From positions 58 through 64,057 of the forward strand of contig JAZNGF010000035.1 in assembly GCA_045576295.1 (NCBI GenBank): a stretch of 64,000 bases of DNA. Reading direction: 5' to 3'. Below, in pieces: positions 951-41,339 of the stretch (position 1 is its first letter; each line of letters begins with the position of its first letter). The notes beneath the pieces are model-generated. The model did not search any database. It was not told where the DNA came from and worked only from the letters and a program-made list of their open reading frames with translations. This stretch comes from Acutalibacteraceae bacterium. Lineage in GTDB: Bacteria; Bacillota; Clostridia; Oscillospirales; Acutalibacteraceae. Made by a program: the position numbers and the translations under genes.

Positions 951-1129
951 TTAATTTCACCTCCGAAAATAAAACCTGCTCCCAAAAACATGGGAACAGG
1001 TTAAACACATAACGGGTTACGTTAAAAAATTTAACATATTCCTCGGTAGGCCTTAGTTTTAAGCCTTGCGGCACCTACTGTCTTTGGTAGTAATATAATT
1101 AGTTTATCACCTGAAAACAGGTTTGTCAA
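951..1129 (-). promoter_or_regulatory. rplJ promoter plus L10-leader-like attenuator
   Basis: On the minus strand: TTGACA (1129-1124), a 17-nt spacer, TAAACT (1106-1101). This is followed by a structured leader and a hairpin AACCTGTTCCCA...GGGAGCAGGTT (about 1002-973) with a U-rich tail just before the rplJ RBS. The position and architecture match the ribosomal L10 leader. Family assignment is from memory and was not searched. Confidence 0.55.
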
Positions 1130-9561: not shown

Positions 9562-9637
9562 GCTGGTGTAGCTCAGTTGGTAGAGCAGCTGATTTGTAAT
9601 CAGCAGGTCGGGGGTTCGAGTCCGTCCACCAGCTCCA
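9562..9637 (+). tRNA. tRNA-Thr (anticodon TGT)
   Basis: Cloverleaf folded by hand: acceptor GCTGGTG/CACCAGC, D arm GCTCAGTTGGTAGAGC, anticodon arm GCTGA-TTTGTAA-TCAGC, T loop TTCGAGT, encoded CCA. Confidence 0.9.
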
Positions 9638-9656
9638 TTTTTTTGCAATTTAATAT

Positions 9657-9741
9657 GGGAGAGTTCCCGAGTGGCCAAAGGGGGCAGACTGTAAATCTGT
9701 TGCGTTTCGCTTCGATGGTTCGAATCCGTCCTCTCCCACCA
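9657..9741 (+). tRNA. tRNA-Tyr (anticodon GTA), class II with long variable arm
   Basis: Acceptor GGGAGAG/CTCTCCC, anticodon loop CTGTAAA, long variable arm, T loop TTCGAAT, encoded CCA. Confidence 0.9.
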
Positions 9742-10304: not shown

Positions 10305-11012
10305 ATGAAACTTATGAGTTTTAACACACAGCACTGCCTGAATTTTCTTGAAGACAAAATTGATTTTCAAATTATGGCCGATGCAATAATCAAATGCGGC
10401 GCCGATATTGTTGGGCTCAACGAAATGTACGATAAGGGAGATGCCAAAGATTTTGTTGCGCAGGCCGAAATTTTAGCTGGTCTTACAGGGCTTAAACACT
10501 TCTATTTTGCCAAGGCTATTGATTATGAAGGCAACAACCCCTATGGCAATGCAATTTTATCGCGCTACACGATAGTGGCCGCCGAAACCATAGTGATTCC
10601 CGACCCTGAGCCCAAAGGTTATAACGGATATTACCAAACACGCTGCATTTTAAAAGCAACACTTAAAAACGGGCTCACGGTGCTTGTAACCCATTTTGGG
10701 CTTAACCCCGATGAACAGCAAAACGCGGCTGCCACCGTGCTTCAAAATTTAAGGGCTGAAAAATGCGTGCTTATGGGCGACTTTAACATAACACCCGATA
10801 ATGAGCTTTTAGCACCTATAAGAGAAAAAATGAAAGACACGGCAGATTATTTTAAAAAGCCACTTTTTAGTTTCCCGTCTGATAGGCCCCAAGAGAAAAT
10901 TGACTATATCTTTGTATCCCCCGATATTAAGGTAATAAACGCCGATATACCCGAAATTATCGTGTCTGACCACAGGCCGCACACGGCGGAAGTTAATATT
11001 ACTGAAATTTAA
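10305..11012 (+). CDS. Endonuclease/exonuclease/phosphatase (EEP) family protein
   Basis: A 235-aa ORF with EEP motifs (MSFNTQH..., GLNE, GDFN, SDHRP near the C-terminus). Confidence 0.8.
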   Translation: MKLMSFNTQHCLNFLEDKIDFQIMADAIIKCGADIVGLNEMYDKGDAKDFVAQAEILAGLTGLKHFYFAKAIDYEGNNPYGNAILSRYTIVAAETIVIPDPEPKGYNGYYQTRCILKATLKNGLTVLVTHFGLNPDEQQNAAATVLQNLRAEKCVLMGDFNITPDNELLAPIREKMKDTADYFKKPLFSFPSDRPQEKIDYIFVSPDIKVINADIPEIIVSDHRPHTAEVNITEI

Positions 11013-11018
11013 AAAGCA

Positions 11019-11052
11019 GCACCCGATTCCAAAACGGAGTTGGGTGCATTTT
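11019..11052 (+). terminator. Intrinsic terminator (copy 1 of a repeated terminator module)
   Basis: GCACCCGATTCC-aaaa-CGGAGTTGGGTGC followed by ATTTT. Nearly identical to 13439-13473. Confidence 0.75.
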
Positions 11053-13052: not shown

Positions 13053-13426
13053 ATGCAAAACAAACCAAATGTTGCCCTAACCGAGCCCCACAACCACCAA
13101 GATGAACTAAAAAACCAACCCTCGTTTTTGATGGTAAACTAATCGCTTTAATTGGCATTAACCTATTAACATCGTTTGTAAACTTTATTACCTTAGGGTT
13201 TGCATACCCTGCTATGTATTGCTTTAAAAAGCGCTGGATATATTCACACACCGTTATTAACGGCTACCGCCTGAAATTCACAGGAAAAGGCGGGCAGTTG
13301 TTTGGCAAATATATACTTTGGACATTTTTAGCCATTATAACCATTGGCGTTTACGCTTTTTGGCTCCCCATTAAATATCAAAAATGGGAAACAAAGCACG
13401 TTACAATTGATTCGAAAATAGTTTAA
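13053..13426 (+). pseudogene. Frameshifted small two-TM membrane protein gene (or a homopolymer sequencing error)
   Basis: GGAGG lies 7 nt upstream of the ATG at 13053, and this frame stops at 13140-13142. The rest of the protein (FDGKLIALIGINLLTSF...WLPIKYQKWETKHVTID) continues in the -1 frame through to 13426. The junction lies at A6 (13109-13114) or T5 (13125-13129). Confidence 0.5.
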
Positions 13427-13438
13427 AACTCAAAAACA

Positions 13439-13473
13439 GCACCTGATTCCAAAACGGAGTCGGGTGCTACTTT
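13439..13473 (+). terminator. Intrinsic terminator (copy 2 of the repeated terminator module)
   Basis: GCACCTGATTCC-aaaa-CGGAGTCGGGTGC followed by TACTTTT. It has the same loop and flanks as 11019-11052, with compensating stem changes. Confidence 0.7.
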
Positions 13474-18046: not shown

Positions 18047-18378
18047 GATTTTTCCTCGCGTCTTAAATCCGTTATGAACACTTGTCCCATTTAAAAAACC
18101 TTACAAACCGTTTGTTTATGCGGCTTGTGAGGTTTTCTTTTTGTTCAAAAGTGTTTATGTTCTTTACTTTGTTCTTTATTGTTCAGTGTTTTCAAGCAAT
18201 CCTGCCATTAAATTCAATGCTTTTACATTAGATTTTTGTACTGCATGTGCATAAGCTAATACTCAATTTCATTTTACTATTCATTCTATTCCTTTTTGAT
18301 TATCAGCTTGACTTCCGGCGTATTTGATTTTAAATAACAATCGAAATCGTTAACCTTTTGCACATTTTTAAAATTATA

Positions 18379-18632
18379 TTGAACTTTTGCCTTTAAAGTG
18401 GTATACTAACACTGCCAAACAAACTTAATAAACAGAAGCTGGGTATTTCCCCTTTGCGGGGGGTATTATGCTCTTTTTTGGTTATCTTATCGATATGAAT
18501 TTGGTAAAAACGCAAATTCCATCGGTGGGATGATCGGGTTATGATACCCCCATTCTGTTTGAGTTTGTTTGGCGACAATCGGGGTTTGCGTTTTTCGGTG
18601 CGTTCGACTTCGGTTGGCGCACTTTTTTGTTT
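18379..18632 (+). promoter_or_regulatory. Candidate structured 5' leader, copy a (promoter, nested helices, cUUCGg-loop terminator)
   Basis: Promoter: TTGAAC (18379-18384), 17-nt spacer, TGg-TATACT (18402-18407). Helices: GGGGGTATTATG 18459-18470 / TATGATACCCCC 18540-18551; ATCTTATCGAT 18484-18494 / ATCGGTGGGAT 18521-18531; GAATTTG 18497-18503 / CAAATTC 18513-18519. The terminator hairpin at 18597-18622 is followed by T6 at 18623-18628. The 3' module at 18576-18632 is nearly identical to 30564-30620 and 35104-35160. Confidence 0.6.
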
Positions 18633-18646
18633 TATGGGGTGTTTTT

Positions 18647-19102
18647 ATGACCGCAAAAAGACTAATGTTCTTGTTTTTATCCTTAACCATAATTTTATCT
18701 GCCTGCAAATATTCTAATAAAACGATTAGCGAAACCCCTGCCGAAGAGCCTGCATACGAAGTTTTTAAAATAAATATATATGCTGAATGTGTTTCAAACG
18801 ATTCGGTAGGCAATGAATGGGTTCAAGAATACTTTATGGATGGGCAAAGAATTTATAGTGGGCACCAAATAACACTGCCGTTAAATGAGCCACCCGTTTT
18901 TAAAACCATAACCGCAACTATCGAAGAGGTTGACAAGTACCCCGATATATCATCAAAAGATATATCCTTTGAAATAAAAGACGGCAAAGAAAGCCACAAA
19001 ACGGTGGTTGTTACCGAAGGCGATGGATGCCATAAAGGCCGCGAAGCAGTTTGGAATGTAAAGGTATCGGTTGAAAAATTGTTGAATGAAGAATTGCCAT
19101 AA
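18647..19102 (+). CDS. Lipoprotein of unknown function
   Basis: ATG at 18647 behind a GGGGTG RBS. Signal peptide with lipobox: MTAKRLMFLFLSLTIILSAC. The longer track ORF (18569) would read through the terminator hairpin and is unlikely. Confidence 0.7.
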   Translation: MTAKRLMFLFLSLTIILSACKYSNKTISETPAEEPAYEVFKINIYAECVSNDSVGNEWVQEYFMDGQRIYSGHQITLPLNEPPVFKTITATIEEVDKYPDISSKDISFEIKDGKESHKTVVVTEGDGCHKGREAVWNVKVSVEKLLNEELP

Positions 19103-19106
19103 ACTG

Positions 19107-19268
19107 TTGACTTGATATTTTTTATGTGGTATAATGATCGGCGTGAAATGAACAAATAATAATCTTTAAGAACGGTACAGAGATGCCGGCAAGGTTAGCA
19201 ATTTTGCGCAATATGTTTTTGCGCTCGTTTTGGTATGCACAGCCTTGCTTAAAGCAAGGCTTTTTTTG
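19107..19268 (+). promoter_or_regulatory. pyr operon promoter plus PyrR-type binding loop and attenuator terminator
   Basis: Promoter: TTGACT (19107-19112), 17-nt spacer, TGg-TATAAT (19130-19135). The motif CTTTAAGAAC-GGTA-CAGAGA-TGCC-GGCAAGG (19163-19197) matches the PyrR motif (UUUAA...stem-CAGAGA-stem...AAGG), with a compensated stem. The terminator is CAGCCTTGCTT-aa-AGCAAGGCT followed by T7 (19240-19268). Confidence 0.65.
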
Positions 19269-19302: not shown

Positions 19303-20562
19303 ATGAAAGCGATTTTTGAAGGCGGAAAGGTTTATATGGGCGGCAAGTTTTCATGTGCCCCCCTTTTTGTTGATGATAAAAAAGTATCTGAGCCGATTTC
19401 AGGCGGCAGTGTTGCTATTTATAATGTTAATAATTCTATTATTGTTCCCGGCTTTACAGATGTTCATGTTCATCTGCGTGAGCCGGGCTTTTCATATAAA
19501 GAAACAATCGAAAGCGGAACGCGCGCAGCCGCTGCCGGCGGCTACACCACGGTTTGCTCTATGCCAAACCTGAACCCCGCACCTGACAGCGCTGAAGCTA
19601 TAAAACAGCAGCTTAATGCAATAAAAAAAGGCGCCGCGATTAGGGTTTACCCCTACGCTTCGATAACCAAAGGGCTGAAAGGTGAGGCTCTTTCAGATAT
19701 GGAAGAACTAGCCCCGCTTTGCATTGCCTTTACGGATGATGGCAAGGGCGTTCAAAAAAATGAAATGATGCTTGAAGCAATGAAAACCGCAAAAGCTTTA
19801 GGCAAAATGATAGTTGCCCACTGTGAAGACGAAAGCCTTTTAATCGGTGGCTGTATACACGACGGCGAGTTTGCCCGCAAAAACGGTTTCCGCGGAATAT
19901 CGAGCGAGAGCGAATGGCGCCAGGTTGAGCGCGACTTAGAGCTTGCTGCCGCCACAGGATGCAAATATCATGTTTGCCACATTTCGACGAAGGAAACGGT
20001 TGGACTTATACGCCAGGCTAAAAAATCAGGCGTTGACGTTACCTGCGAAACAGCGCCACATTACCTGATTCTTTGCGACCAAGACCTTAAAGACGAAGGC
20101 AGATTTAAAATGAACCCGCCCATTAGAAGTGAGGCTGACCGCGAAGCACTTGTTGAAGGACTGATTGACGGAACGATTGATATGATAGCAACCGATCACG
20201 CGCCACATTCGGCCGAAGAAAAGAGTAAAGGGCTTAAAGGCAGTTTAATGGGGGTTTCGGGGCTTGAATGCGCATTTGCGGCGGTTTACACAAACCTTGT
20301 TAAACCGGGTGTTTTACCGCTTGAAAGGCTGATTGATGCTATGAGCATTACCCCGCGCCGCCGATTTGGAATCCCAGGCGGCACCGAAATTGGCGACGAC
20401 GCCGATTTCACGGTTATTAATTTAGATGAATCGTTCACCGTTCGCGGAGAAGATTTTATTTCAAAAGGAAAGTTCACCCCGTTTGAAGGGCGCAAATTTT
20501 ATGGAAAAGTTAAGCTAACAGCAGTGAAAGGAGAAATAGTGTGGCAAGCCACACTACACTAA
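19303..20562 (+). CDS. pyrC: Dihydroorotase
   Basis: A 419-aa ORF with the metal-binding DVHVHLREPG, the AAAGGYTTV motif and an amidohydrolase fold signature. Confidence 0.93.
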   Translation: MKAIFEGGKVYMGGKFSCAPLFVDDKKVSEPISGGSVAIYNVNNSIIVPGFTDVHVHLREPGFSYKETIESGTRAAAAGGYTTVCSMPNLNPAPDSAEAIKQQLNAIKKGAAIRVYPYASITKGLKGEALSDMEELAPLCIAFTDDGKGVQKNEMMLEAMKTAKALGKMIVAHCEDESLLIGGCIHDGEFARKNGFRGISSESEWRQVERDLELAAATGCKYHVCHISTKETVGLIRQAKKSGVDVTCETAPHYLILCDQDLKDEGRFKMNPPIRSEADREALVEGLIDGTIDMIATDHAPHSAEEKSKGLKGSLMGVSGLECAFAAVYTNLVKPGVLPLERLIDAMSITPRRRFGIPGGTEIGDDADFTVINLDESFTVRGEDFISKGKFTPFEGRKFYGKVKLTAVKGEIVWQATLH

Positions 20563-29563: not shown

Positions 29564-30034
29564 ATGACATTACGAGAACTTAGAAAAATCAAAGGGATAA
29601 CACAGCAAGAAGCCGCAGATTATGTAGGGGTGCCATTAAGGACTTACTCTAATTATGAAAACGATCCTCAAAAGCAGTCCAGCATTAAATATAAGTATAT
29701 AATGGAAAAACTATATACCCACGGATATATCGATGAAGAAAACGGGGTGCTGACATTAGAAGAGATCAAAAAGACCTGTGTAAATATTCTTTCCAAATAT
29801 CCTGTTGAATATTGCTATTTGTTTGGGTCATACGCAAAGGGCAACGCAAAACCATCAAGTGATGTGGATTTACTAATCCACACCACTCTTTCAGGATTAA
29901 AGTTCTACGGTTTGGTTGAAGAACTGCGCGAACAGTTGAAGAAAAAGGTTGATGTGCTTGACCAAAAACAAATAATGGGTAACTTTGAACTTACAAATGA
30001 AATACTGAAGGATGGCGTAAAGATTTATGGATAA
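29564..30034 (+). CDS. mntA: MntA-type nucleotidyltransferase antitoxin with fused N-terminal XRE HTH domain
   Basis: The N-terminus is an HTH (LRELRKIKGITQQEAADYVGVPLRTYSNYE). The C-terminus carries the minimal NTase motif (LFGSYAKGNAKPSSDVDLLI). It overlaps the downstream DUF86 gene by 8 nt. Confidence 0.8.
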   Translation: MTLRELRKIKGITQQEAADYVGVPLRTYSNYENDPQKQSSIKYKYIMEKLYTHGYIDEENGVLTLEEIKKTCVNILSKYPVEYCYLFGSYAKGNAKPSSDVDLLIHTTLSGLKFYGLVEELREQLKKKVDVLDQKQIMGNFELTNEILKDGVKIYG

Positions 30035-30362
30035 TATAAAAAATGACGCTTACTATATTAAGAAAATGCTAAAGGACATTAAGTTTATTATAAATAACAC
30101 AAAGGGAATAACACTTGACGAGCTTGAAGCAAACGAGGTGCTGTGCGACTCTGTTCTTTTTCGTTTGATACAAATCTCTGAAAACTCAGTGAAACTTACC
30201 CCTGATTTTAAGGCAAGGCACAACGATATTCCTTGGCAGGCCATCAAGGGTATGAGAAACAAAATTGTTCACGAATACGGCGATGTTGAGTTTGATATTG
30301 TTCATCAAACAGTTACAGAGGATATACCCGAAATTTGTAAGAAGCTTGACAGTCTTGTGTGA
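30027..30362 (+). CDS. hepT: HepT-type (DUF86) RNase toxin
   Basis: A 111-aa ORF with the Rx4HxY motif (RNKIVHEY), paired with the NTase gene. Confidence 0.85.
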   Translation: MDNIKNDAYYIKKMLKDIKFIINNTKGITLDELEANEVLCDSVLFRLIQISENSVKLTPDFKARHNDIPWQAIKGMRNKIVHEYGDVEFDIVHQTVTEDIPEICKKLDSLV

Positions 30363-30419
30363 TTGTTTTATAAGGAAATGATAACCAAGATTGCAGAAGT
30401 ATGTGTTTAAATTATTTTG

Positions 30420-30620
30420 TTGTAAAAGCGTTAAAAGTGTGATAAAATAAACTCACCACACAAATCATTATAGGCGTATTACAAGAGAATGTTTTTTGTT
30501 TCGGCAAAAACACATTCTCCGCTTGTGCATTCCTTGTGATATGCCAAAAGATTTGTGTGGTAACAATCTGGAGCTATGTGTTTTTCGGTGCGTAGCTTCG
30601 GTTGCGCACTTTTTTGTTTT
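30420..30620 (+). promoter_or_regulatory. Candidate structured 5' leader, copy b (promoter, nested helices, cUUCGg-loop terminator)
   Basis: Promoter: TTGTAA (30420-30425), 17-nt spacer, TGtgaTAAAAT (30443-30448). Helices: P1 30456-30466/30550-30560; P2 30473-30484/30534-30545; P3 30485-30498/30505-30519. The terminator hairpin at 30587-30609 is followed by T6 at 30610-30615. Confidence 0.65.
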
Positions 30621-30633
30621 TACGAGGTATTAA

Positions 30634-30867
30634 ATGAAAGACAAGTCAGAGATTTACAAAACATTCGGCAAAAGATTAAAGGCAATAAGAAAAGAACTTA
30701 AAATGACTCAGATTGATTTTTCGAAGCACTTGTCGATAGATAGAAGCCTTTACACAAAGTATGAAACCGGAGCATCTATGCCACCCGGCTATAAGCTATA
30801 TGAAATGGCTAAAAATCTTGGTGTATCAACTGATTTTTTATTAGGGCTTAACGATAATGATAATTAG
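30634..30867 (+). CDS. Small XRE-family HTH regulator (77 aa), paralog of 35176-35418
   Basis: HTH_3 sequence (LKAIRKELKMTQIDFSKHLSIDRSLYTKYETG) and the shared tail DFLLGLNDNDN. A GAGG RBS precedes it. Confidence 0.85.
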   Translation: MKDKSEIYKTFGKRLKAIRKELKMTQIDFSKHLSIDRSLYTKYETGASMPPGYKLYEMAKNLGVSTDFLLGLNDNDN

Positions 30868-30883
30868 TGTTTTACATAAAATG

Positions 30884-30907
30884 CGGTGCCACACGGCACC
30901 GTTTTTT
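30884..30907 (+). terminator. Intrinsic terminator after the XRE gene
   Basis: CGGTGCC-acac-GGCACCG followed by T6. Confidence 0.8.
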
Positions 30908-30968
30908 AGTATCGTTTTTTAATTGTTAACAAATAGTAAAAAGTGCGTGAAATATGGTGCTCTTCCCG

Positions 30969-30997
30969 TTGACATATAATTTTTAGGGTGTTAAAAT
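30969..30997 (+). promoter_or_regulatory. Putative promoter of the ABC exporter pair
   Basis: TTGACA (30969-30974), a 17-nt spacer, TAAAAT (30992-30997). Confidence 0.55.
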
Positions 30998-31055
30998 ATA
31001 CTAATATGTTAGATTTAATATGAAATTTTAACGTTCAACCACGGGGGTTCAACAA

Positions 31056-32795
31056 ATGATTTTAAAATTACTAAAATGTGTGCGAGAATACAAAAAAACC
31101 TCGATACTCACGCCGATTTTGGTTACAGGCGAGGTTATTCTTGAATGCTTAATACCGTTTATTATTGCAAAGCTGGTTTCGGCAATTCAGGCCGGTGCAA
31201 CGGTTGGCGAAATTGCTAAATACGGCGGTGTTTTAACCGTTATGGCGGCGTTATCACTCATATTCGGTGCGGTTGCAGGTTCAACTGCCGCAACAGCTTC
31301 TTGCGGTTTTGCAAAGAATATACGAAAAGATCTATTTTATAAAATTCAAGACTTTTCGTTTGCGAATATCGACAGGTTTTCAACCTCATCGCTGGTTACA
31401 AGGCTCACAACCGACATAACCAATGTTCAAATGTCGTATATGATGATTATCAGAACCGCGGTTAGAGGCCCGCTTATGATAATTTTCTCGTTTGTTATGG
31501 CGGCCGTTATGGGCGGAAAGCTCGCGTTCATTTTTGCCTGTCTTTTACCTGTTTTGGCGTTCTTCTTCCTTTTTATCATCAAAAAGGTTATGCCTATATT
31601 TAAGCGAGCCTTTAAAAAATACGATAACCTCAACCGCGAAATTCAAGAAAACGTTCGCGGAATAAGGGTTGTTAAATCATTTGTTAGAGAAGACTACGAA
31701 AAGAAAAAATTCAACACCGCATCTGACGGGGTTAGAGAAGACTTCACAGTGGCTGATAAAATTATGGTGCTTTCAAACCCGCTTTTGCAGCTCTGCCTTT
31801 ATATTAATATGATAGCCATTATGTTCTTTGGCTCTAAAATCATAATTTCGGGCGGCGCGCTTAACGTTGGCCAGCTTTCGGCACTTATCACCTACGGCTT
31901 CCAGATTTTAATGAGCCTTATGATGATTTCGATGGTTTTTGTTATGATAACAATTTCAGGCGAATCGGCCGCGCGTATTGTTGAGGTGCTGGGCGAAAAA
32001 TCAACAATCACAAACCCCGAAAACCCCGAAATGCAGGTTAAAAACGGCAGCATTGACTTTAACGGTGTTTCGTTTAAATATTCCGAAAAGGCCAAAGAAA
32101 TGGCGCTTTCAAGCATCGAGCTTCACATTAAATCGGGCGAAACCATTGGAATTATTGGCGGAACAGGGTCGGGCAAAAGCTCGCTTATACAGTTAATACC
32201 CCGCCTTTACGATGCAACCGAGGGCTCAGTTATGGTTGGCGGACGTGATGTTAGAAAGTACGACATTGAATCGCTTCGAAATGCGGTTTCGGTTGTTTTG
32301 CAGAAAAACGAGCTCTTTTCGGGAACAATTAAAGAAAACCTTCGCTGGGGCAACCCCGACGCGAGCGATGAAGAGCTGATTGAAGCCTGCAAAATGGCGG
32401 CGGCACACGAGTTTGTGTCATCCTTCCCCGATGGATACGACACATTCATTGAGCAGGGCGGCGCCAATGTTTCGGGCGGGCAGAAACAGCGCCTTTGCAT
32501 TGCAAGGGCATTGCTTAAAAAGCCTAAGATTTTAATTTTAGATGATTCCACAAGCGCGGTTGACACCAAAACCGATGCAATGATTCGCGCCGCGTTTGAA
32601 AAATATATTCCCGAAACCACAAAGCTTATCATCGCTCAACGCATTTCTTCAGTTGAAAAGGCCGACCGCATTGTGGTTATGGACGACGGCAAGATAAACG
32701 ACGTTGGCACCCACGAAGAGCTGCTAAAGCGCAATGAAATCTACAAAGATGTTTACGAATCTCAAAACAAGGCAGGTGTTAGCGATGAGAGGTAG
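31056..32795 (+). CDS. ABC exporter half-transporter (TMD-NBD), degenerate-site subunit
   Basis: Six-helix TMD, Walker A GGTGSGKSS, signature VSGGQKQR, and Walker B ILILDD followed by S instead of the catalytic E. Confidence 0.9.
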   Translation: MILKLLKCVREYKKTSILTPILVTGEVILECLIPFIIAKLVSAIQAGATVGEIAKYGGVLTVMAALSLIFGAVAGSTAATASCGFAKNIRKDLFYKIQDFSFANIDRFSTSSLVTRLTTDITNVQMSYMMIIRTAVRGPLMIIFSFVMAAVMGGKLAFIFACLLPVLAFFFLFIIKKVMPIFKRAFKKYDNLNREIQENVRGIRVVKSFVREDYEKKKFNTASDGVREDFTVADKIMVLSNPLLQLCLYINMIAIMFFGSKIIISGGALNVGQLSALITYGFQILMSLMMISMVFVMITISGESAARIVEVLGEKSTITNPENPEMQVKNGSIDFNGVSFKYSEKAKEMALSSIELHIKSGETIGIIGGTGSGKSSLIQLIPRLYDATEGSVMVGGRDVRKYDIESLRNAVSVVLQKNELFSGTIKENLRWGNPDASDEELIEACKMAAAHEFVSSFPDGYDTFIEQGGANVSGGQKQRLCIARALLKKPKILILDDSTSAVDTKTDAMIRAAFEKYIPETTKLIIAQRISSVEKADRIVVMDDGKINDVGTHEELLKRNEIYKDVYESQNKAGVSDER

Positions 32796-34719
32796 ACCGA
32801 ATATGAAGCAAATGCCCAAAGGCGGGCCGCGACCTGCACCAAAAAAAGGCGTGTTCGGCAGGCTTATTAAAGAGTTGTTCCGCGCCTACCCCGTAGCGCT
32901 GCCTATTGTTATTGTTGCAATTTTAGTAAACGCTATTGTTTCATCAATTCCTGCAGTGTTTATGCAAAACATTTACAAGCTTATCGAAGAGTCACTTAAA
33001 GATTCAACCCCTTGGGCAAAAGCCTCAGGCGAAATTATCAAATTCGTTATTATGCTGGCGACTCTTTACCTTATTTCTATCATTTTAGGCTTTTTATATA
33101 ACCGAATGATGGCAACCATCACCCAAGGCTTTTTGCACAAAATGCGCCTTAAAATGTTTGGCGTTATGCAAGGGCTTCCTGTTAAGTTTTTCGATTCTAA
33201 CAATAATGGCGATATTATGAGTTATTACACCAACGACGTTGACACTATGCGCCAGTTGGTATCACAAAGCCTGCCGCACATTTTAACATCGGTTACAACC
33301 GTTTTAACCGTTGCCTTTTTAATGCTTTACTATAGCGTTTGGCTATTCCTTGTTGTATGCGTTGGCGTTGTTGCAATGCTTATGGTTACTTCAAAGGTGG
33401 GCGGAAATTCCTCGAAATACTTTATCGGCCAGCAACGTTCGGTTGCAGGCACCGAAGGCTATGTTGAAGAAATGATGAACGGCCAAAAGGTTGTTAAGGT
33501 TTTCTGCCACGAAAAGGAAAGCCGCGAAGGATTCGACAAGCTTAACGACGAGCTGTTTGAAAACTCACGAAAAGCCCATAAATACGCAAACATTTTAATG
33601 CCCATTCTTGGAAATATAGGCAACATTCTTTATGTTATTGTTGCGCTCGTTGGCGGAACACTTTTGGTTTTAAATGTTCCGAATGTTTCAATTTCGGGGC
33701 TTGCTTTAGGCATAAACATTGTGGTTCCCTTCCTTAATATGACCAAGCAGTTTTCGGGCAATATTGGGCAGGTTTCATCGCAAATCAACTCAATCATAAT
33801 GGGCCTTGCAGGTGCATCGCGCGTGTTTGAGCTTATTGATGAAAAGCCCGAGGTAGACAACGGCTATGTAACACTTGTTAATGTTCGCGAAGAAAACGGC
33901 AAACTTACCGAATGCAAAGAAAAAACAGGAATGTGGGCTTGGAAACACCCCCACTCGGCCGACGGCTCGGTTACCTATACAAAGCTTTTGGGCGATGTTA
34001 GAATGAACGAGGTTGATTTTGGCTATGTTCCCGAAAAAATCGTGCTTAAAAATGTTTCGCTTTATGCTAAGCCCGGGCAAAAGGTTGCCTTTGTTGGCGC
34101 AACAGGCGCCGGCAAAACAACCATAACCAACCTTATTAACAGGTTTTACGACATTGCCGACGGTAAGATTAGGTATGACGGCATTAACATTAACAAAATC
34201 AAAAAGGCCGACCTTCGCCGTTCGCTTGGCATTGTTCTGCAAGATATTAACCTTTTCACCGGAACGGTTATGGATAACATCCGCTACGGCAAGCTTGACG
34301 CAACTGATGAAGAATGCATTGCCGCCGCACGCCTTGCCGGGGCCGACAGTTTTATTAGGCGCCTGCCCGATGGCTATAACACGCAGCTTTCGGCCAGCAG
34401 TGCCAACCTTTCGCAAGGCCAGCGCCAGCTTATTGCCATAGCGCGCGCCGCCGTTAACGACCCACCCGTTATGATTATGGACGAGGCAACATCTTCAATC
34501 GATACCAGAACCGAGGCTATAGTTCAGCGCGGAATGGACGCTTTAATGAAGGGCAGAACCGTTTTTGTTATTGCGCACCGCCTTTCAACCATTAAAAATT
34601 CCGATGTTATTATGATGCTTGATCACGGCGAGATAATCGAGCGCGGAAGCCACGATGAGCTTATGGCCAAAAAGGGCAAATACTACGAGCTTTACACCGG
34701 CGCATTCGAGCTTGATTGA
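32785..34719 (+). CDS. ABC exporter half-transporter (TMD-NBD), consensus-site subunit
   Basis: Walker A GATGAGKTT, non-canonical signature LSQGQRQ, and Walker B VMIMDEATS with the catalytic E. The start is ATG 32785 (overlapping) or 32803. Confidence 0.9.
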   Translation: MRGRPNMKQMPKGGPRPAPKKGVFGRLIKELFRAYPVALPIVIVAILVNAIVSSIPAVFMQNIYKLIEESLKDSTPWAKASGEIIKFVIMLATLYLISIILGFLYNRMMATITQGFLHKMRLKMFGVMQGLPVKFFDSNNNGDIMSYYTNDVDTMRQLVSQSLPHILTSVTTVLTVAFLMLYYSVWLFLVVCVGVVAMLMVTSKVGGNSSKYFIGQQRSVAGTEGYVEEMMNGQKVVKVFCHEKESREGFDKLNDELFENSRKAHKYANILMPILGNIGNILYVIVALVGGTLLVLNVPNVSISGLALGINIVVPFLNMTKQFSGNIGQVSSQINSIIMGLAGASRVFELIDEKPEVDNGYVTLVNVREENGKLTECKEKTGMWAWKHPHSADGSVTYTKLLGDVRMNEVDFGYVPEKIVLKNVSLYAKPGQKVAFVGATGAGKTTITNLINRFYDIADGKIRYDGININKIKKADLRRSLGIVLQDINLFTGTVMDNIRYGKLDATDEECIAAARLAGADSFIRRLPDGYNTQLSASSANLSQGQRQLIAIARAAVNDPPVMIMDEATSSIDTRTEAIVQRGMDALMKGRTVFVIAHRLSTIKNSDVIMMLDHGEIIERGSHDELMAKKGKYYELYTGAFELD

Positions 34720-34740
34720 TTAAACTGAATACACGTATAG

Positions 34741-34777
34741 TCAAGGCATTTCACTGTGTGGAGTGCCTTGATTTTTT
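34741..34777 (+). terminator. Intrinsic terminator after the ABC pair
   Basis: TCAAGGCATT...AGTGCCTTGA followed by T6. Confidence 0.8.
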
Positions 34778-34800
34778 ATAAATCTACCGTCTGCATCGTT

Positions 34801-34897
34801 GGGGCGGATGCCCTCATCCGCCCGTGCAGAGCTATGCTTTTGAATTCCCCTTGTATATCACATTAATTGCCCGCGGGACGATGTGGGCATCGTCCCC
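34801..34897. repeat. Pair of inverted, homologous GC-rich hairpins (REP/MITE-like)
   Basis: GGGGCGGATG-ccctc-ATCCGCCCG (34801-34824) and, in opposite orientation, CGGGACGATG-tgggc-ATCGTCCCC (34874-34897), separated by about 49 nt. Confidence 0.6.
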
Positions 34898-34958
34898 TAC
34901 AAGATAAATGATAAACCCCCTTTTATTTTTACAGTAAATGAATTATTAAATAAATTTA

Positions 34959-35160
34959 TTGTAAAGTGATGAAAAATGTGGTAAACTAATCTTGCGACGT
35001 AACTTCATTTGAATATTACCCAGTCGAGAGGTGCATTTTACTAAGGTAAAAATGCATACTCTTTTTCGTGCATTCTTGATTGGGTGCTGAAGTTGCGTCG
35101 CAGCAATTGGAGTTATGCGTTTTTCGGTGCGCTTAACTTCGGTTGGCGCACTTTTTTGTT
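34959..35160 (+). promoter_or_regulatory. Candidate structured 5' leader, copy c (promoter, nested helices, cUUCGg-loop terminator)
   Basis: Promoter: TTGTAA (34959-34964), 17-nt spacer, TAAACT (34982-34987). Helices: P1 34993-35007/35088-35102; P2 35018-35028/35075-35085; P3 about 35033-35041/35046-35055. The terminator hairpin at 35126-35151 is followed by T6 at 35152-35157. Confidence 0.65.
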
Positions 35161-35175
35161 TAAGAGGTTATTTTG

Positions 35176-35418
35176 ATGTTGGAATATGAAGAAATGCACA
35201 AAAACTTTTGCACAAATTTAAAGGATATGCGCAAGCAAATGCAAATGACACAAGAAGATTTTGCAAGGTTTATTGGCATTGGGCGCACATTATATACTAA
35301 ATATGAAACGTGTGCGGCAACACCCACATTTATAAAACTGCTCAAAATAATATCTGCTTTAAATGTATCAGCAGATTTTTTGTTCGGAATAAAAGCCAAC
35401 GATAATATAGATAAATAA
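35176..35418 (+). CDS. Small XRE-family HTH regulator (80 aa), paralog of 30634-30867
   Basis: ATG at 35176 behind an AGAGG RBS. HTH sequence LKDMRKQMQMTQEDFARFIGIGRTLYTKYET and tail DFLFGIKANDN. Confidence 0.85.
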   Translation: MLEYEEMHKNFCTNLKDMRKQMQMTQEDFARFIGIGRTLYTKYETCAATPTFIKLLKIISALNVSADFLFGIKANDNIDK

Positions 35419-39547: not shown

Positions 39548-39579
39548 GTACTAAATATGTATTATGAGGTGGTATTGCT

Positions 39580-40254
39580 ATGTATACTTGTTCAAAATGT
39601 AATTTTAAAACCGAAACTGCTATAAATTATTGCCCGCAGTGCGGCGGCGGAATGTTGTTTGTTAAACCTATGGTTCAAAAGCCGGCTGAACCCACCTTCG
39701 CGCAGCCTGTACAGCAAAATGTTCAACCACCTGTTCAGCCACAGCCTGCAAATCAAGCATACACTACACAAAGCGCACCCGCTGAGCCTATGCATAATCA
39801 ATATAATACACAGGGTTATAGCCAGCCCACCGCGCAATTTCAGGCTGAACCTACATACGCACCGCCTTCTGCGCCGCAACAAAATCAATACAACGCATAT
39901 AATTCGCATAATTATTCGGCTCAAAACAATAATTTCTACCAGCCCGTTAACGAGCCAAAGGTTTCGGTGGGCCGCAAAATCGCCGGCATGGTTCTTTCGA
40001 TTATCGGTGCTGCTTTCGCGTTCTTTACCTTCATTGGCACATTAGATTCAATGGGCTACGAAGATGCATTCGACGGCGCCTTTATTTTAACACTTTTATT
40101 CGGCGCGCTTCCTATTATTGGGCTTGTGCTTTCAAACAAATGCCGAAACGACGGCGACACATCGCCCATTTCCAAGGTTGGTAAAATCCTTGGCATAGTG
40201 GGCCTTGCGTTGTTTGGTTTAAGCCTGTTCTTTGGTTTTGTTAGTTTAGCCTAA
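39580..40254 (+). CDS. Zinc-ribbon membrane protein, paralog 1 (long Q/P-rich linker)
   Basis: N-terminal CxxC-x13-CxxC (MYTCSKCNF...NYCPQCGG), a Q/P/A/Y-rich low-complexity linker, and about 3 TM helices with the conserved LSNKCRNDGD loop. Confidence 0.8.
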   Translation: MYTCSKCNFKTETAINYCPQCGGGMLFVKPMVQKPAEPTFAQPVQQNVQPPVQPQPANQAYTTQSAPAEPMHNQYNTQGYSQPTAQFQAEPTYAPPSAPQQNQYNAYNSHNYSAQNNNFYQPVNEPKVSVGRKIAGMVLSIIGAAFAFFTFIGTLDSMGYEDAFDGAFILTLLFGALPIIGLVLSNKCRNDGDTSPISKVGKILGIVGLALFGLSLFFGFVSLA

Positions 40255-40313
40255 TACGCTTGATTGGTTTAATTTATTTAATTGAATTTAGAATTTAAAA
40301 AGGTGGAATTATT

Positions 40314-40838
40314 ATGTATACTTGTTCAAAATGTGATTTTAAAACTGAAACCGCTATAAATTATTGCCCCGAGTGCGGCGGCACAATGGTTTATGTTCAG
40401 CCAGCAGCGCAGCAATCGGCCGAACCCACCTATGCACCGCCCACTTACTCGCAACCTGCTTACACACAGCATAGTTCTAACACCTATGCACCTTATCAAG
40501 ATGTGTATACTACACCCACCGCACCCAAAAAACCGCACTTAGCATTTAAAATTGTTTCAATGGCTTTATCTATTGGCGGCTTTGTTCTTGCTCTTGTTAC
40601 TTTCTTTTACACACTTTTCGGCCTAATTGAGCCACCCGTTGCGTTTGTTTTTTCATTTATTTTTTCAATTTTCTATTCGCCGCTTTCGATTGTTGGCCTT
40701 ATTCTTTCAAACAAATGCCAAAACGCAGGCGATAACTCGGCCTTTTCGAAGGTTGGCAAAATTTTAGGGCTTATTGGCGTTATTATTTATGGCGTTAGCC
40801 TGTTTATCGGCGTTATGTCGCTTGGTGCAGGTTTTTAA
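40314..40838 (+). CDS. Zinc-ribbon membrane protein, paralog 2
   Basis: Same architecture. The 5' end is nearly identical to paralog 1, and the 3' end is nearly identical to paralog 3. Confidence 0.8.
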   Translation: MYTCSKCDFKTETAINYCPECGGTMVYVQPAAQQSAEPTYAPPTYSQPAYTQHSSNTYAPYQDVYTTPTAPKKPHLAFKIVSMALSIGGFVLALVTFFYTLFGLIEPPVAFVFSFIFSIFYSPLSIVGLILSNKCQNAGDNSAFSKVGKILGLIGVIIYGVSLFIGVMSLGAGF

Positions 40839-40856
40839 TTCAAATTTATAGTTTTG
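40721..40856 (+). repeat. Direct repeat unit A (3' end of paralog 2 plus 18 nt of downstream flank)
   Basis: Aligns without gaps to 41222-41357. I count 4 mismatches in 136 nt. Confidence 0.9.
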
Positions 40857-40895
40857 GTTAGTTAAATAAAGCACTTCTCGAAAGGGGCAACTACT

Positions 40896-41339
40896 GTGTA
40901 TACTTGTTCAAAATGCGGTTTTACAAACAATTCTGAATTGAATTTTTGCCCCATGTGCGGAGCACAGGTTGTTTCGAAACAAAACACGACCGAGCAACCT
41001 ATTGAGTCGGCAAGTGGCACTACCGTTAAAAAGCCGCATCTTGCATTTAAAATTATCTCAATGGTTTTATCTATTGAGGGTTTTTATGCAGCTTATGTAA
41101 CCTTAATATTAACACTTGTGGGCCTTATTCAACAGCCGTTTTCTTTCGAATTTTCAGTTGGTTTTTCGTTATTCTATGCGCCACTTTCGGTTGTTGGACT
41201 TATATTTTCAAATAAATGCCGAAACGCAGGCGATAACTTAGCCTTTTCGAAGGTTGGCAAAATTTTAGGGCTTATTGGCATTATTCTTTATGGCGTTAGC
41301 CTGTTTATCGGCGTTATGTCGCTTGGTGCAGGTTTTTAA
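40896..41339 (+). CDS. Zinc-ribbon membrane protein, paralog 3 (GTG start, short linker)
   Basis: MYTCSKCGF...NFCPMCG and the same C-terminal TM module ending GVMSLGAGF. Confidence 0.78.
   Translation: MYTCSKCGFTNNSELNFCPMCGAQVVSKQNTTEQPIESASGTTVKKPHLAFKIISMVLSIEGFYAAYVTLILTLVGLIQQPFSFEFSVGFSLFYAPLSVVGLIFSNKCRNAGDNLAFSKVGKILGLIGIILYGVSLFIGVMSLGAGF

Follow-up and report, generated by a model that had tools for sequence, protein, structure and literature searches.

A predicted family of conditional transcription terminator leaders placed before unrelated genes in gut and rumen Clostridia

Introduction

In the pyr attenuators of Bacillus, a stabilised anti-antiterminator frees the terminator. 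In the trp-type attenuators of Escherichia coli (1:2 / 2:3 / 3:4), a shared strand picks its partner and one of the choices permits the terminator, while in riboswitches of the cobalamin kissing-loop type the expression platform is contacted by a loop of the 5' domain, which pairs with one of its strands. The infC-rpmI-rplT (L20) leader of Bacillus subtilis is about 200 nucleotides (nt) long and combines a terminator with a conserved second element, the switch being set by a trans-acting protein (PMC1865079). We analysed a stretch of 64,000 nt from an Acutalibacteraceae bacterium (GCA_045576295.1, contig JAZNGF010000035.1, positions 58 to 64,057; hereafter the window), in which a leader, copy a, occupies positions 18379-18646 in front of a lipoprotein-like gene, and two relatives, copies b and c, stand in front of XRE genes. 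Our reading, to which we assign a probability of about 0.72, is that copy a is a cis-acting conditional transcription-attenuation leader and a member of a large family absent from Rfam 15 and from the literature that we searched. Judging from its sequence, the leader most likely decides on the transcription of the downstream gene.

The leader is predicted to form a long rod that carries a strand, S2, at its tip, followed by an expression platform made of strands S3, S4 and S5. The helices S2:S3 (anti-antiterminator), S3:S4 (antiterminator) and S4:S5 (terminator) would be three successive mutually exclusive helices, the arrangement found in the PyrR-dependent pyr attenuators. However, the anti-antiterminator of the leader family is a 15-base-pair (bp) long-range helix across a 55-60-nt rod strand and not a local hairpin, the family has neither the PyrR binding-loop consensus nor an Rfam PyrR match, and its cargo genes are not pyr genes; the pyr operon located beside copy a has its own promoter at 19107. 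With T-boxes, the family shares a long 5' stem domain, a competing antiterminator and terminator, its occurrence in leaders of Firmicutes, many copies per genome and control at the level of transcription, but it has no T-box sequence, no specifier loop and no RF00230 match, inspection of its antiterminator loop (UUUUUCGG) found no UGGN for the 3' end of a tRNA, and its cargo does not consist of aminoacyl-tRNA synthetase or amino-acid genes. The L20 leader shows no similarity to it in sequence or model, and belongs to one autoregulated ribosomal-protein operon, whereas the present family is multi-copy with unrelated cargo.

As in the trp-type attenuators, one strand (S3) has two partners, and one of the choices would let the terminator form, but the family lacks a conserved leader peptide. 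A leader-peptide attenuator was considered and rejected: ATG frames cross the platform in copies b and c and none does so in copy a, with differing frame and length. Since the open reading frames (ORFs) of the platform differ in frame between copies, the position of the ribosome is not the sensor. The pairing of S2, at the rod tip, with a platform strand recalls the cobalamin-type riboswitches; in the present leaders, however, this contact comprises 15 bp instead of a few, there is no evident conserved ligand pocket and no Rfam match was obtained. Readings of the platform as an ANTAR target or as a mimic of the Shine-Dalgarno sequence were also rejected upon sequence inspection, which revealed no dual hexaloops and a GGAG that is too short on its own. 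We file the element as a new family within a known kind, the conditional transcription terminator leader. What is unusual in it is the use of a long-range pseudoknot as anti-antiterminator and the reuse of a promoter-to-ribosome-binding-site unit before many unrelated genes.

Results and Discussion

Organisation of copy a

Copy a is a complete leader running from a promoter to a ribosome-binding site, and it is real and non-random; the z-score of its minimum-free-energy fold against shuffled sequences was -8.9 (-6.8 for copy b and -7.6 for copy c). Its parts, all on the + strand, are as follows.

18379-18407, +: promoter of the sigma-70 type, with a -35 box TTGAAC (18379-18384), a 17-nt spacer and a TG-extended -10 box TATACT (18402-18407)
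about 18414, +: predicted transcription start, from the promoter position
18414-18428, +: 5' strand of P1 (GCCAAACAAACUUAA), a 15-bp closing helix with 18559-18573
18429-18431, +: A/U bulge between P1 and P2, on the 5' strand only; UAA in copy a, AAUA in the family consensus
18432-18446, +: 5' strand of P2 (ACAGAA, internal loop, GGGUAU), partner 18544-18558
18447-18479, +: P2a insertion, long class only; family consensus GGGAUAAUUAUACCC then U6, copy a ...GGGGGGUAUUAUGCUCUUUUUU
18480-18494, +: 5' strand of P3, partner 18521-18535
18497-18503, +: S1 (GAAUUUG), apical-hairpin partner of the 3' part of S2
18506-18520, +: S2 (AAAAACGCAAAUUCC), loop and 3' strand of the apical hairpin, complementary to S3 over 15 bp
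18521-18573, +: 3' strands of P3 (18521-18535), P2 (18544-18558) and P1 (18559-18573), from folds
18574-18580, +: linker GACAAUC; its CAAUC doubles as the outer 5' segment of the antiterminator
18581-18595, +: S3 (GGGGUUUGCGUUUUU), shared strand, partner of S2 (anti-antiterminator) or S4 (antiterminator)
18598-18616, +: S4 (GUGCGUUCGACUUCGGUUG), 5' half, loop and inner stem of the terminator
18618-18633, +: S5 (CGCAC) and U tract (UUUUUUGUUUU); CGCAC closes the terminator with 18598-18602
18636-18649, +: ribosome-binding site GGGGUG and start codon ATG at 18647, opening a 151-amino-acid (aa) lipoprotein-like gene (18647-19102)

The three nested helices that the original prediction had listed for this copy are all present in its minimum-free-energy fold, and a start near 18414, as it had proposed, is plausible given the TTGAAC-17-TATACT promoter. 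Two features had escaped it, the 15-bp closing helix P1 and the pairing of 18506-18520 with 18581-18595. The segment 18552-18584, taken for a longer linker, consists mostly of the 3' strands of P2 and P1, and the true linker is 18574-18580. The GGGTAT at 18441-18446, suggested as a second partner of GATACC, is the conserved partner family-wide (GGGUAU/AUACCC is the typical pairing at the top of P2), but in copy a the pairing of 18459-18470 with 18540-18551 is better by 5 kcal/mol; this alternative belongs to the minimum-free-energy fold and replaces the family-typical P2a. Behind copy a there is indeed an unrelated gene, whose 151-aa product from ATG 18647 has a lipoprotein-type N-terminus (MTAKRLMFLFLSLTIILSAC). 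The ORF called from TTG 18569 merely adds 26 in-frame codons through the hairpins and is an artefact, as suspected.

Folding of the 3' module of copy a with RNAfold favoured the pairing of CAAUCGGGGUU.GCGU (18576-18591) with GCGU..GACUUCGGUUG (18600-18616). In this model, the preferred hairpin is the antiterminator (18600-18603 and 18606-18616 paired with 18576-18591), and it would use up the 5' half of the terminator 18598-18622. The latter has the make-up of an intrinsic terminator, a G+C-rich hairpin followed by U6GU4. S2 (18506-18520) and S3 (18581-18595) are fully complementary when G-U pairs are allowed.

Family scans

Two scans were made, to whose listed matches the family percentages and counts given below refer. 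The module-anchored scan searched one genome per species of the GTDB with the core of the 3' module and gave at least 120 loci (at least 127 instances). The reciprocal scan, anchored on P1, searched metagenome contigs with the P1 3' strand, the linker and GGRG only, and also gave at least 120 loci. The module-anchored matches listed came from metagenome-assembled genomes of gut and rumen Clostridia, nearly all titled Oscillospiraceae, Acutalibacteraceae, Eubacteriales, Clostridia or Ruminococcus, and the P1-anchored ones mostly from assemblies of human-gut and rumen type. The first search pattern fixed much of the terminator and overstated the invariance of the module, which the P1-anchored scan corrected: the strict module sequence was present in only 14 of 117 P1-anchored matches listed, while nearly all of them had GYR-U5, 1-4 nt, a hairpin, a U tract, a ribosome-binding site and a start codon. 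Alignment A2 comprises 116 module-anchored loci, and alignment A5 comprises 98 P1-anchored matches aligned to the model. MAFFT followed by RNAalifold recovered P1, P2a and the apical stem; the sequences of P2 and P3 were too variable for this, and these two helices were read from per-sequence folds.

The results of these scans showed a constant order of elements. The complement of the P1 3' strand was found approximately 165-180 nt or 118-145 nt upstream of the module in nearly every instance listed. A -10 box with at least 5 of 6 matches lay upstream of P1 in 106 of 110 loci listed, and it ended exactly 6 nt before the first P1 nucleotide in 92 of the 110. In the module-anchored loci listed, a start codon with its ribosome-binding site usually followed 18-50 nt after the U tract on the same strand.

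No known family accounted for these leaders. Comparison of the whole window with the 4227 models of Rfam 15 at the gathering threshold gave only an L10 leader and two tRNAs, an E-value scan of 18300-18700 gave only sub-threshold noise, and a scan of 30380-35200 had no match at E<=1. The ribosomal protein L10 leader (86.8 bits) and the two tRNA genes are at 960-1105 (- strand) and 9562-9738 (+ strand). In the literature searched, by concept and by sequence string, the element was not described, nor were its core sequences found. The text of a catalogue of human-microbiome motifs (PMC8040213), taken without its supplementary motif tables, has no mention of Ruminococc*, Oscillo*, lipoprotein, attenuator or helix-turn-helix, and its single mention of Clostridiales concerns ToxN-associated motifs.

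Evidence for competing helices

We examined each helix for pairs that had changed on both sides, with slid positions or shuffled sequences as controls. P1, over 12 bp, was 99.2% paired, with 10 of 12 pairs changed on both sides (slid controls: 28-44%). In most module-anchored loci, S2 and S3 formed 15-17 contiguous pairs at a distance of 74-88 nt (the mean for shuffled S3 was 8.9), with a mean duplex energy of -17.8 kcal/mol. On A2, 94.8% of the S2:S3 cells were paired and 7 of 15 pairs were changed on both sides, while slid controls reached 28-61%; none of 500 shuffles attained the observed paired fraction, number of doubly changed cells or covariation score, and the other two measures were attained by 4 and 1 of them. 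On A5, S2:S3 was 95.1% paired with 9 of 15 pairs changed on both sides, the outer stem of the terminator was 98.7% paired (4 of 5 changed on both sides) and its inner stem 97.2% (3 of 4), and all five measures were above all 500 shuffles. The antiterminator was 98.9% paired on A2, with one pair changed on both sides, and its outer 11 bp were 94% paired on A5, with three such pairs (slid: 26-51%). S1:S2, at 75.7% pairing across the family, was the weakest helix.

Divergent copies, found by the covariance model beside canonical ones, tell most about the shared strand. In L072:2372 and L031:6150, S2 (UUCCUU), S3 (AAGGAA) and S4 (UUCCUU) have changed together. In L029:7031, the three strands have likewise changed in step, S2:S3 to AAAAAUACAUA / UAUGUAUUUUU and S3:S4 to GGC(U)AUG / CAUGCC, and the terminator stem of L090:650 is GUGUA / UACAC. 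S3 is thus held by two partners at once, as a switch predicts. Across about 240 or more loci of two independent scans, the predicted helices S2:S3, S3:S4 and S4:S5 exclude one another and are all conserved, with many compensatory changes in S2:S3 and the terminator and fewer in the antiterminator.

In 98 of 106 loci, the sense strand of the rod gave the more stable fold, with an average advantage of 8.7 kcal/mol over the antisense strand, and the helices of the rod contained 570 G-U pairs as against 17 A.C single mismatches. Selection on the leader, as this pattern reads, is at the RNA level and strand-specific. The leader of copy a was 75-85% identical to leaders of other species, the neighbouring protein genes there having only approximately 65-68% nucleotide identity to the window.

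Copies b and c and the two size classes

Copies b and c belong to a short form of the leader and have the following parts.

30420-30633, +: copy b, short form; promoter 30420-30448, rod 30455-30561, S2 30506-30520
30525-30609, +: 3' part of copy b; S2' GUGCAUUC 30525-30532, S3 30570-30585, terminator 30589-30609
34959-35175, +: copy c, short form; promoter 34959-34987, rod 34994-35101, S2 35048-35062
35068-35151, +: 3' part of copy c; S2' 35068-35075, S3 35109-35124, terminator 35128-35151

Copy b precedes an XRE gene starting at ATG 30634, and copy c another starting at ATG 35176. The 57-nt module of copy a (18576-18632), said to match copies b and c, was confirmed in both by repeat, pattern and covariance-model searches, and these are the only three places in the window, with 0 chance matches expected. 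The repeat search placed the module of copy c at 35116-35178, with 86% identity to copy a over 63 nt. A degenerate core pattern found copy c again, and copy b (near 30580) was found by a search with GTGCATTC and by reading of the sequence. The covariance model, run over all 64 kb with filters off, gave only copies a (128 bits), c (97 bits) and b (94 bits), the next match being an ordinary terminator at 18.8 bits. The mean column identity of the three copies was 69%. Immediately upstream of copy b, at 29564-30362, is a pair of genes for a nucleotidyltransferase with a helix-turn-helix (HTH) N-terminus and a HepT-like protein, which resembles an MntA/HepT toxin-antitoxin module.

Comparison of the listed loci showed two size classes. 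The long class, with a rod of at least 150 nt, accounts for 93 of the 106 classified loci and the short class for the other 13; the rod measures 160 nt in copy a, 107 nt in copy b and 108 nt in copy c. Copy a can be aligned end to end with the long class and is the canonical, majority form. Both classes have the promoter, P1 (GCNANACAA / UUGUNUNGC), the A/U bulge after P1, the apical GGYAAAAAYRC, the GACAAU linker and the platform. The long class has in addition a conserved hairpin, P2a (GGGAUAAUUAUACCC-UUUUUU), and a separate P3, an insertion that the short class does not have. Outside the helices, the AAUA bulge and P2a-U6 are the only conserved elements, and the short class has no P2a. The sequence GTGCATTC, described as a junction that copy a lacks, is found in copies b and c and is in the short class a degenerate direct repeat (S2') of the S2 core, varying with S2 from locus to locus (CGUACGCUCU / CGUACGCUUU and UGUAUGCUCU / CGUAUGCUAU are examples). 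It is missing from copy a because the 3' strand of P3 sits there in the long form. In the short class, S1 can pair with S2 or with S2'.

The original prediction saw in copy a the same 3' platform on a different domain. The platform is common to the three copies, with an unrelated gene behind copy a, but the upstream domain is homologous: the promoter spacing, P1, the AAUA bulge, the apical GGYAAAAAYRC and the S2:S3 complementarity are the same in a, b and c, and the reading as a foreign sensing domain is wrong. On the question of one RNA family or two, the three sequences are best described as one family with two size classes.

Proposed switch

From the strong sigma-70-type promoter, the RNA would start near 18414, at the foot of a rod of about 160 nt (P1-P2-P2a-P3) whose tip displays S2. 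S3 would emerge seven nt past the rod, followed by S4, S5 and the U tract, with the ribosome-binding site and the ATG immediately behind. If S3 pairs with S4, the antiterminator would exclude the terminator and the polymerase would read into the lipoprotein gene. If S2 captures S3, in a long-range pairing pseudoknotted to the rod, S4 would be free to form the terminator and transcription would stop. S1 would compete for S2 in the long form, and in the short form would switch between S2 and S2'.

The sums of local nearest-neighbour energies, before any pseudoknot penalty and as means over 116 loci, were -21.4 kcal/mol for the ON state (apical hairpin -5.3, antiterminator -16.1) and -32.0 kcal/mol for the OFF state (S2:S3 -18.2, terminator -13.8). 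This calculation suggests that the default state would be OFF, provided that the cost of the pseudoknot stays within about 10 kcal/mol. In copy a, freeing S2 from S1 was calculated to cost 9.1 kcal/mol, while S2:S3 returns 19.3.

Several points weigh against the attenuation switch as described. The start site, termination and read-through are all predicted. The helix S2:S3 is pseudoknotted to P1-P3, and its feasibility, argued from helix lengths only, would require a folding back of the rod, for which hinges are conjectured at the P2a junction and at the conserved bulge that follows P1. The antiterminator covaries only modestly, since its two strands are highly conserved and the search patterns had fixed part of them. 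The fitting of A5 to the structure of the model favours that structure, and the P1 5' strands in alignment A3 were located by complementarity, so that the P1 count is partly circular; the position of this strand is nonetheless set by the promoter register. One locus, L047:7381, has the platform with neither rod nor S2, so the platform can stand alone. Finally, the effector is a guess, and the terminator may be constitutively leaky. The locus L047:7381-7525 is in itself a minimal variant, in which a promoter directly precedes a small hairpin and the antiterminator/terminator platform.

Our best guess for the effector is a trans-acting macromolecule that masks S2 or S1:S2, or else the speed or pausing of the polymerase, and not a small metabolite. 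This guess leans on the variable sequence inside the rod and on the pairing constraints in the 3' module. In the antiterminator, CGGAG-UU is paired with the terminator's UUCG loop and inner stem, and the same CGGAG-UU also pairs with the UUCC of S2. Since these overlapping pairing constraints account fully for the conservation of the platform, no trans-acting reader is needed to explain it. In the kinetic case, strand exchange would nucleate at the A5 loop and the U5 stretch, shortly before S4 is made. A more far-reaching possibility, which we hold only tentatively and consider doubtful as it stands, is that the leaders form a regulon-scale switch reading a global state of the cell, through polymerase speed or pausing or through a dedicated RNA-binding factor masking S2, and gating many genes singly. 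The gated set would then comprise lipoproteins, adhesin-like surface proteins, tiny Cys-rich peptides and small DNA-binding proteins of uncultured gut Oscillospirales, and the rigid rod would be a spacer setting the odds that the pseudoknot forms before the antiterminator.

Alternative explanations

The best of the alternatives, though an unlikely one, is a classical riboswitch, in which the rod with its AAUA bulge and P2a junction would be the aptamer for a small molecule or nucleotide second messenger whose binding decides the access of S2 to S3. A widespread, covarying terminator/antiterminator platform in a leader agrees with this, as do the conserved unpaired elements (the AAUA bulge and GGGAUAAUUAUACCC-U6), and the surface proteins and small regulators among the cargo are reminiscent of second-messenger regulons. 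However, the interior of the rod is variable, for which reason a metabolite aptamer is unlikely, and its few invariant unpaired nucleotides are unlike a binding pocket. The short class keeps the full switch without P2a, no biosynthetic or transporter cargo indicates a metabolite, and no Rfam aptamer was matched.

An independent small-RNA gene of about 215 nt, ending at the terminator and with the downstream gene as a neighbour or reached by incidental read-through, is less probable still. The strong promoter, the stable structure, the good terminator and the nominally more stable OFF state would suit such a gene, as would the few copies with no obvious ORF behind them, but the ribosome-binding site and start codon that usually follow 18-50 nt past the U tract on the same strand leave no space for a second promoter, and the conserved antiterminator would be purposeless.

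The original prediction left room for a portable terminator and ribosome-binding-site cassette, or a generic repeated terminator, with incidental upstream folds. The 3' part is in fact the most conserved stretch, and L047:7381 carries it without a rod. The module-only scan, in which what lies upstream and downstream of each match was catalogued, found a conserved structure instead: P1, S2, the promoter and the start codon nearly always accompany module-anchored matches, the platform is nearly always present in P1-anchored ones, S2 covaries with S3, and the module sits between a promoter and a start codon, not behind ordinary genes devoid of conserved upstream structure. These results refute the cassette explanation, to which we leave very little probability.

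A DNA palindrome akin to miniature inverted-repeat transposable elements or repetitive extragenic palindromes, with no RNA function, has for it the multiple copies, some in tandem, and a long inverted repeat with P1 arms like terminal inverted repeats, but is scarcely credible in view of the divergence of copies within one genome (69% identity between a, b and c) with pairing kept by compensatory changes (10 of 12 P1 pairs), the G-U versus A.C asymmetry and sense-strand advantage (98 of 106 loci), the fixed orientation to the downstream gene, and the absence of the module from phage contigs (0 matches of the strict module in viral contigs).

Genes behind the leaders and significance

The cargo was examined on 204 non-identical downstream proteins from the listed loci of both scans, by heuristic counts. 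The N-terminus was lipobox-like in 44 of the 204, had another signal or anchor in 45 and another membrane-like stretch in 22, and 76 of the proteins had at most 100 aa. Small Cys-rich peptides were the most frequent type (27 of 204). Pfam searches on 118 of the proteins gave BspA-type leucine-rich repeats (LRRs), zinc ribbons, XRE HTH, SHOCT and DUF6809 domains, as well as Listeria-Bacteroides repeats, MazE/AbrB-like, trypsin-like peptidase, LiaF and dockerin domains. No biosynthetic or transport pathway stood out among the 204 proteins or in the Pfam results on 118. The predicted cargo is mostly lipoproteins, other envelope proteins and tiny regulators, and the leader units are typically single genes between housekeeping genes.

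If the attenuation reading is correct, the family is probably a new and abundant class of regulatory RNA in hardly cultured bacteria that dominate rumen and gut metagenomes; three copies lie within one 64-kb window. It would then open to study the control of the surface proteome, with BspA-type LRR lipoproteins and dockerin proteins among its members, and of numerous orphan small genes. Work on co-transcriptional folding would gain a natural model, in which an antiterminator and a long-range pseudoknot compete for the control of a terminator, and the promoter-to-ribosome-binding-site unit would be a compact expression part. In gene annotations, a start codon placed within the leader, as at TTG 18569, is an artefact, and such calls can be corrected throughout the family.

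The Cys-rich peptides have approximately 55-75 aa (for example L067:5576-5770 and L063:463-687), with the consensus MSKNIQKKVIDITGIELTPGEPxVCLGNGEQGFECCCDECDYYLLCFPEFD. They had no match in Pfam or NCBIfam, and no maturase gene was found nearby. Their interpretation as precursors of ribosomally synthesised and post-translationally modified peptides was rejected; the L067 gene stands alone between housekeeping genes. Tandem duplicates of leader-plus-gene units were observed at L063:463-1485, L042:1766-2480, L005:2243-2704 and L012:3782-4229, often composed of a leader and a small Cys-rich peptide gene, and some second copies seemingly have no intact cargo gene.

Just past the stop codon of the lipoprotein gene behind copy a, the segment 19094-19302 contains a strong promoter (TTGACT-17-TATAAT, 19107-19135) and terminator-like hairpins (19206-19224 and 19241-19261), ahead of dihydroorotase and carbamoyl-phosphate synthase genes that begin at 19303. 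It looks like a pyr-operon attenuator, yet no match to Rfam PyrR reached threshold. Elsewhere in the window, two 43-nt stretches (11005-11047 and 13425-13467) share 86% identity and each finish with a terminator-like, G+C-rich hairpin; they have no relation to the leader family. A tandem gene family occupies 39565-41327, with 300-nt repeats spaced 501 nt and three 80-nt start regions that encode MYTCSKCxF...CPxCG, a zinc-ribbon N-terminus.

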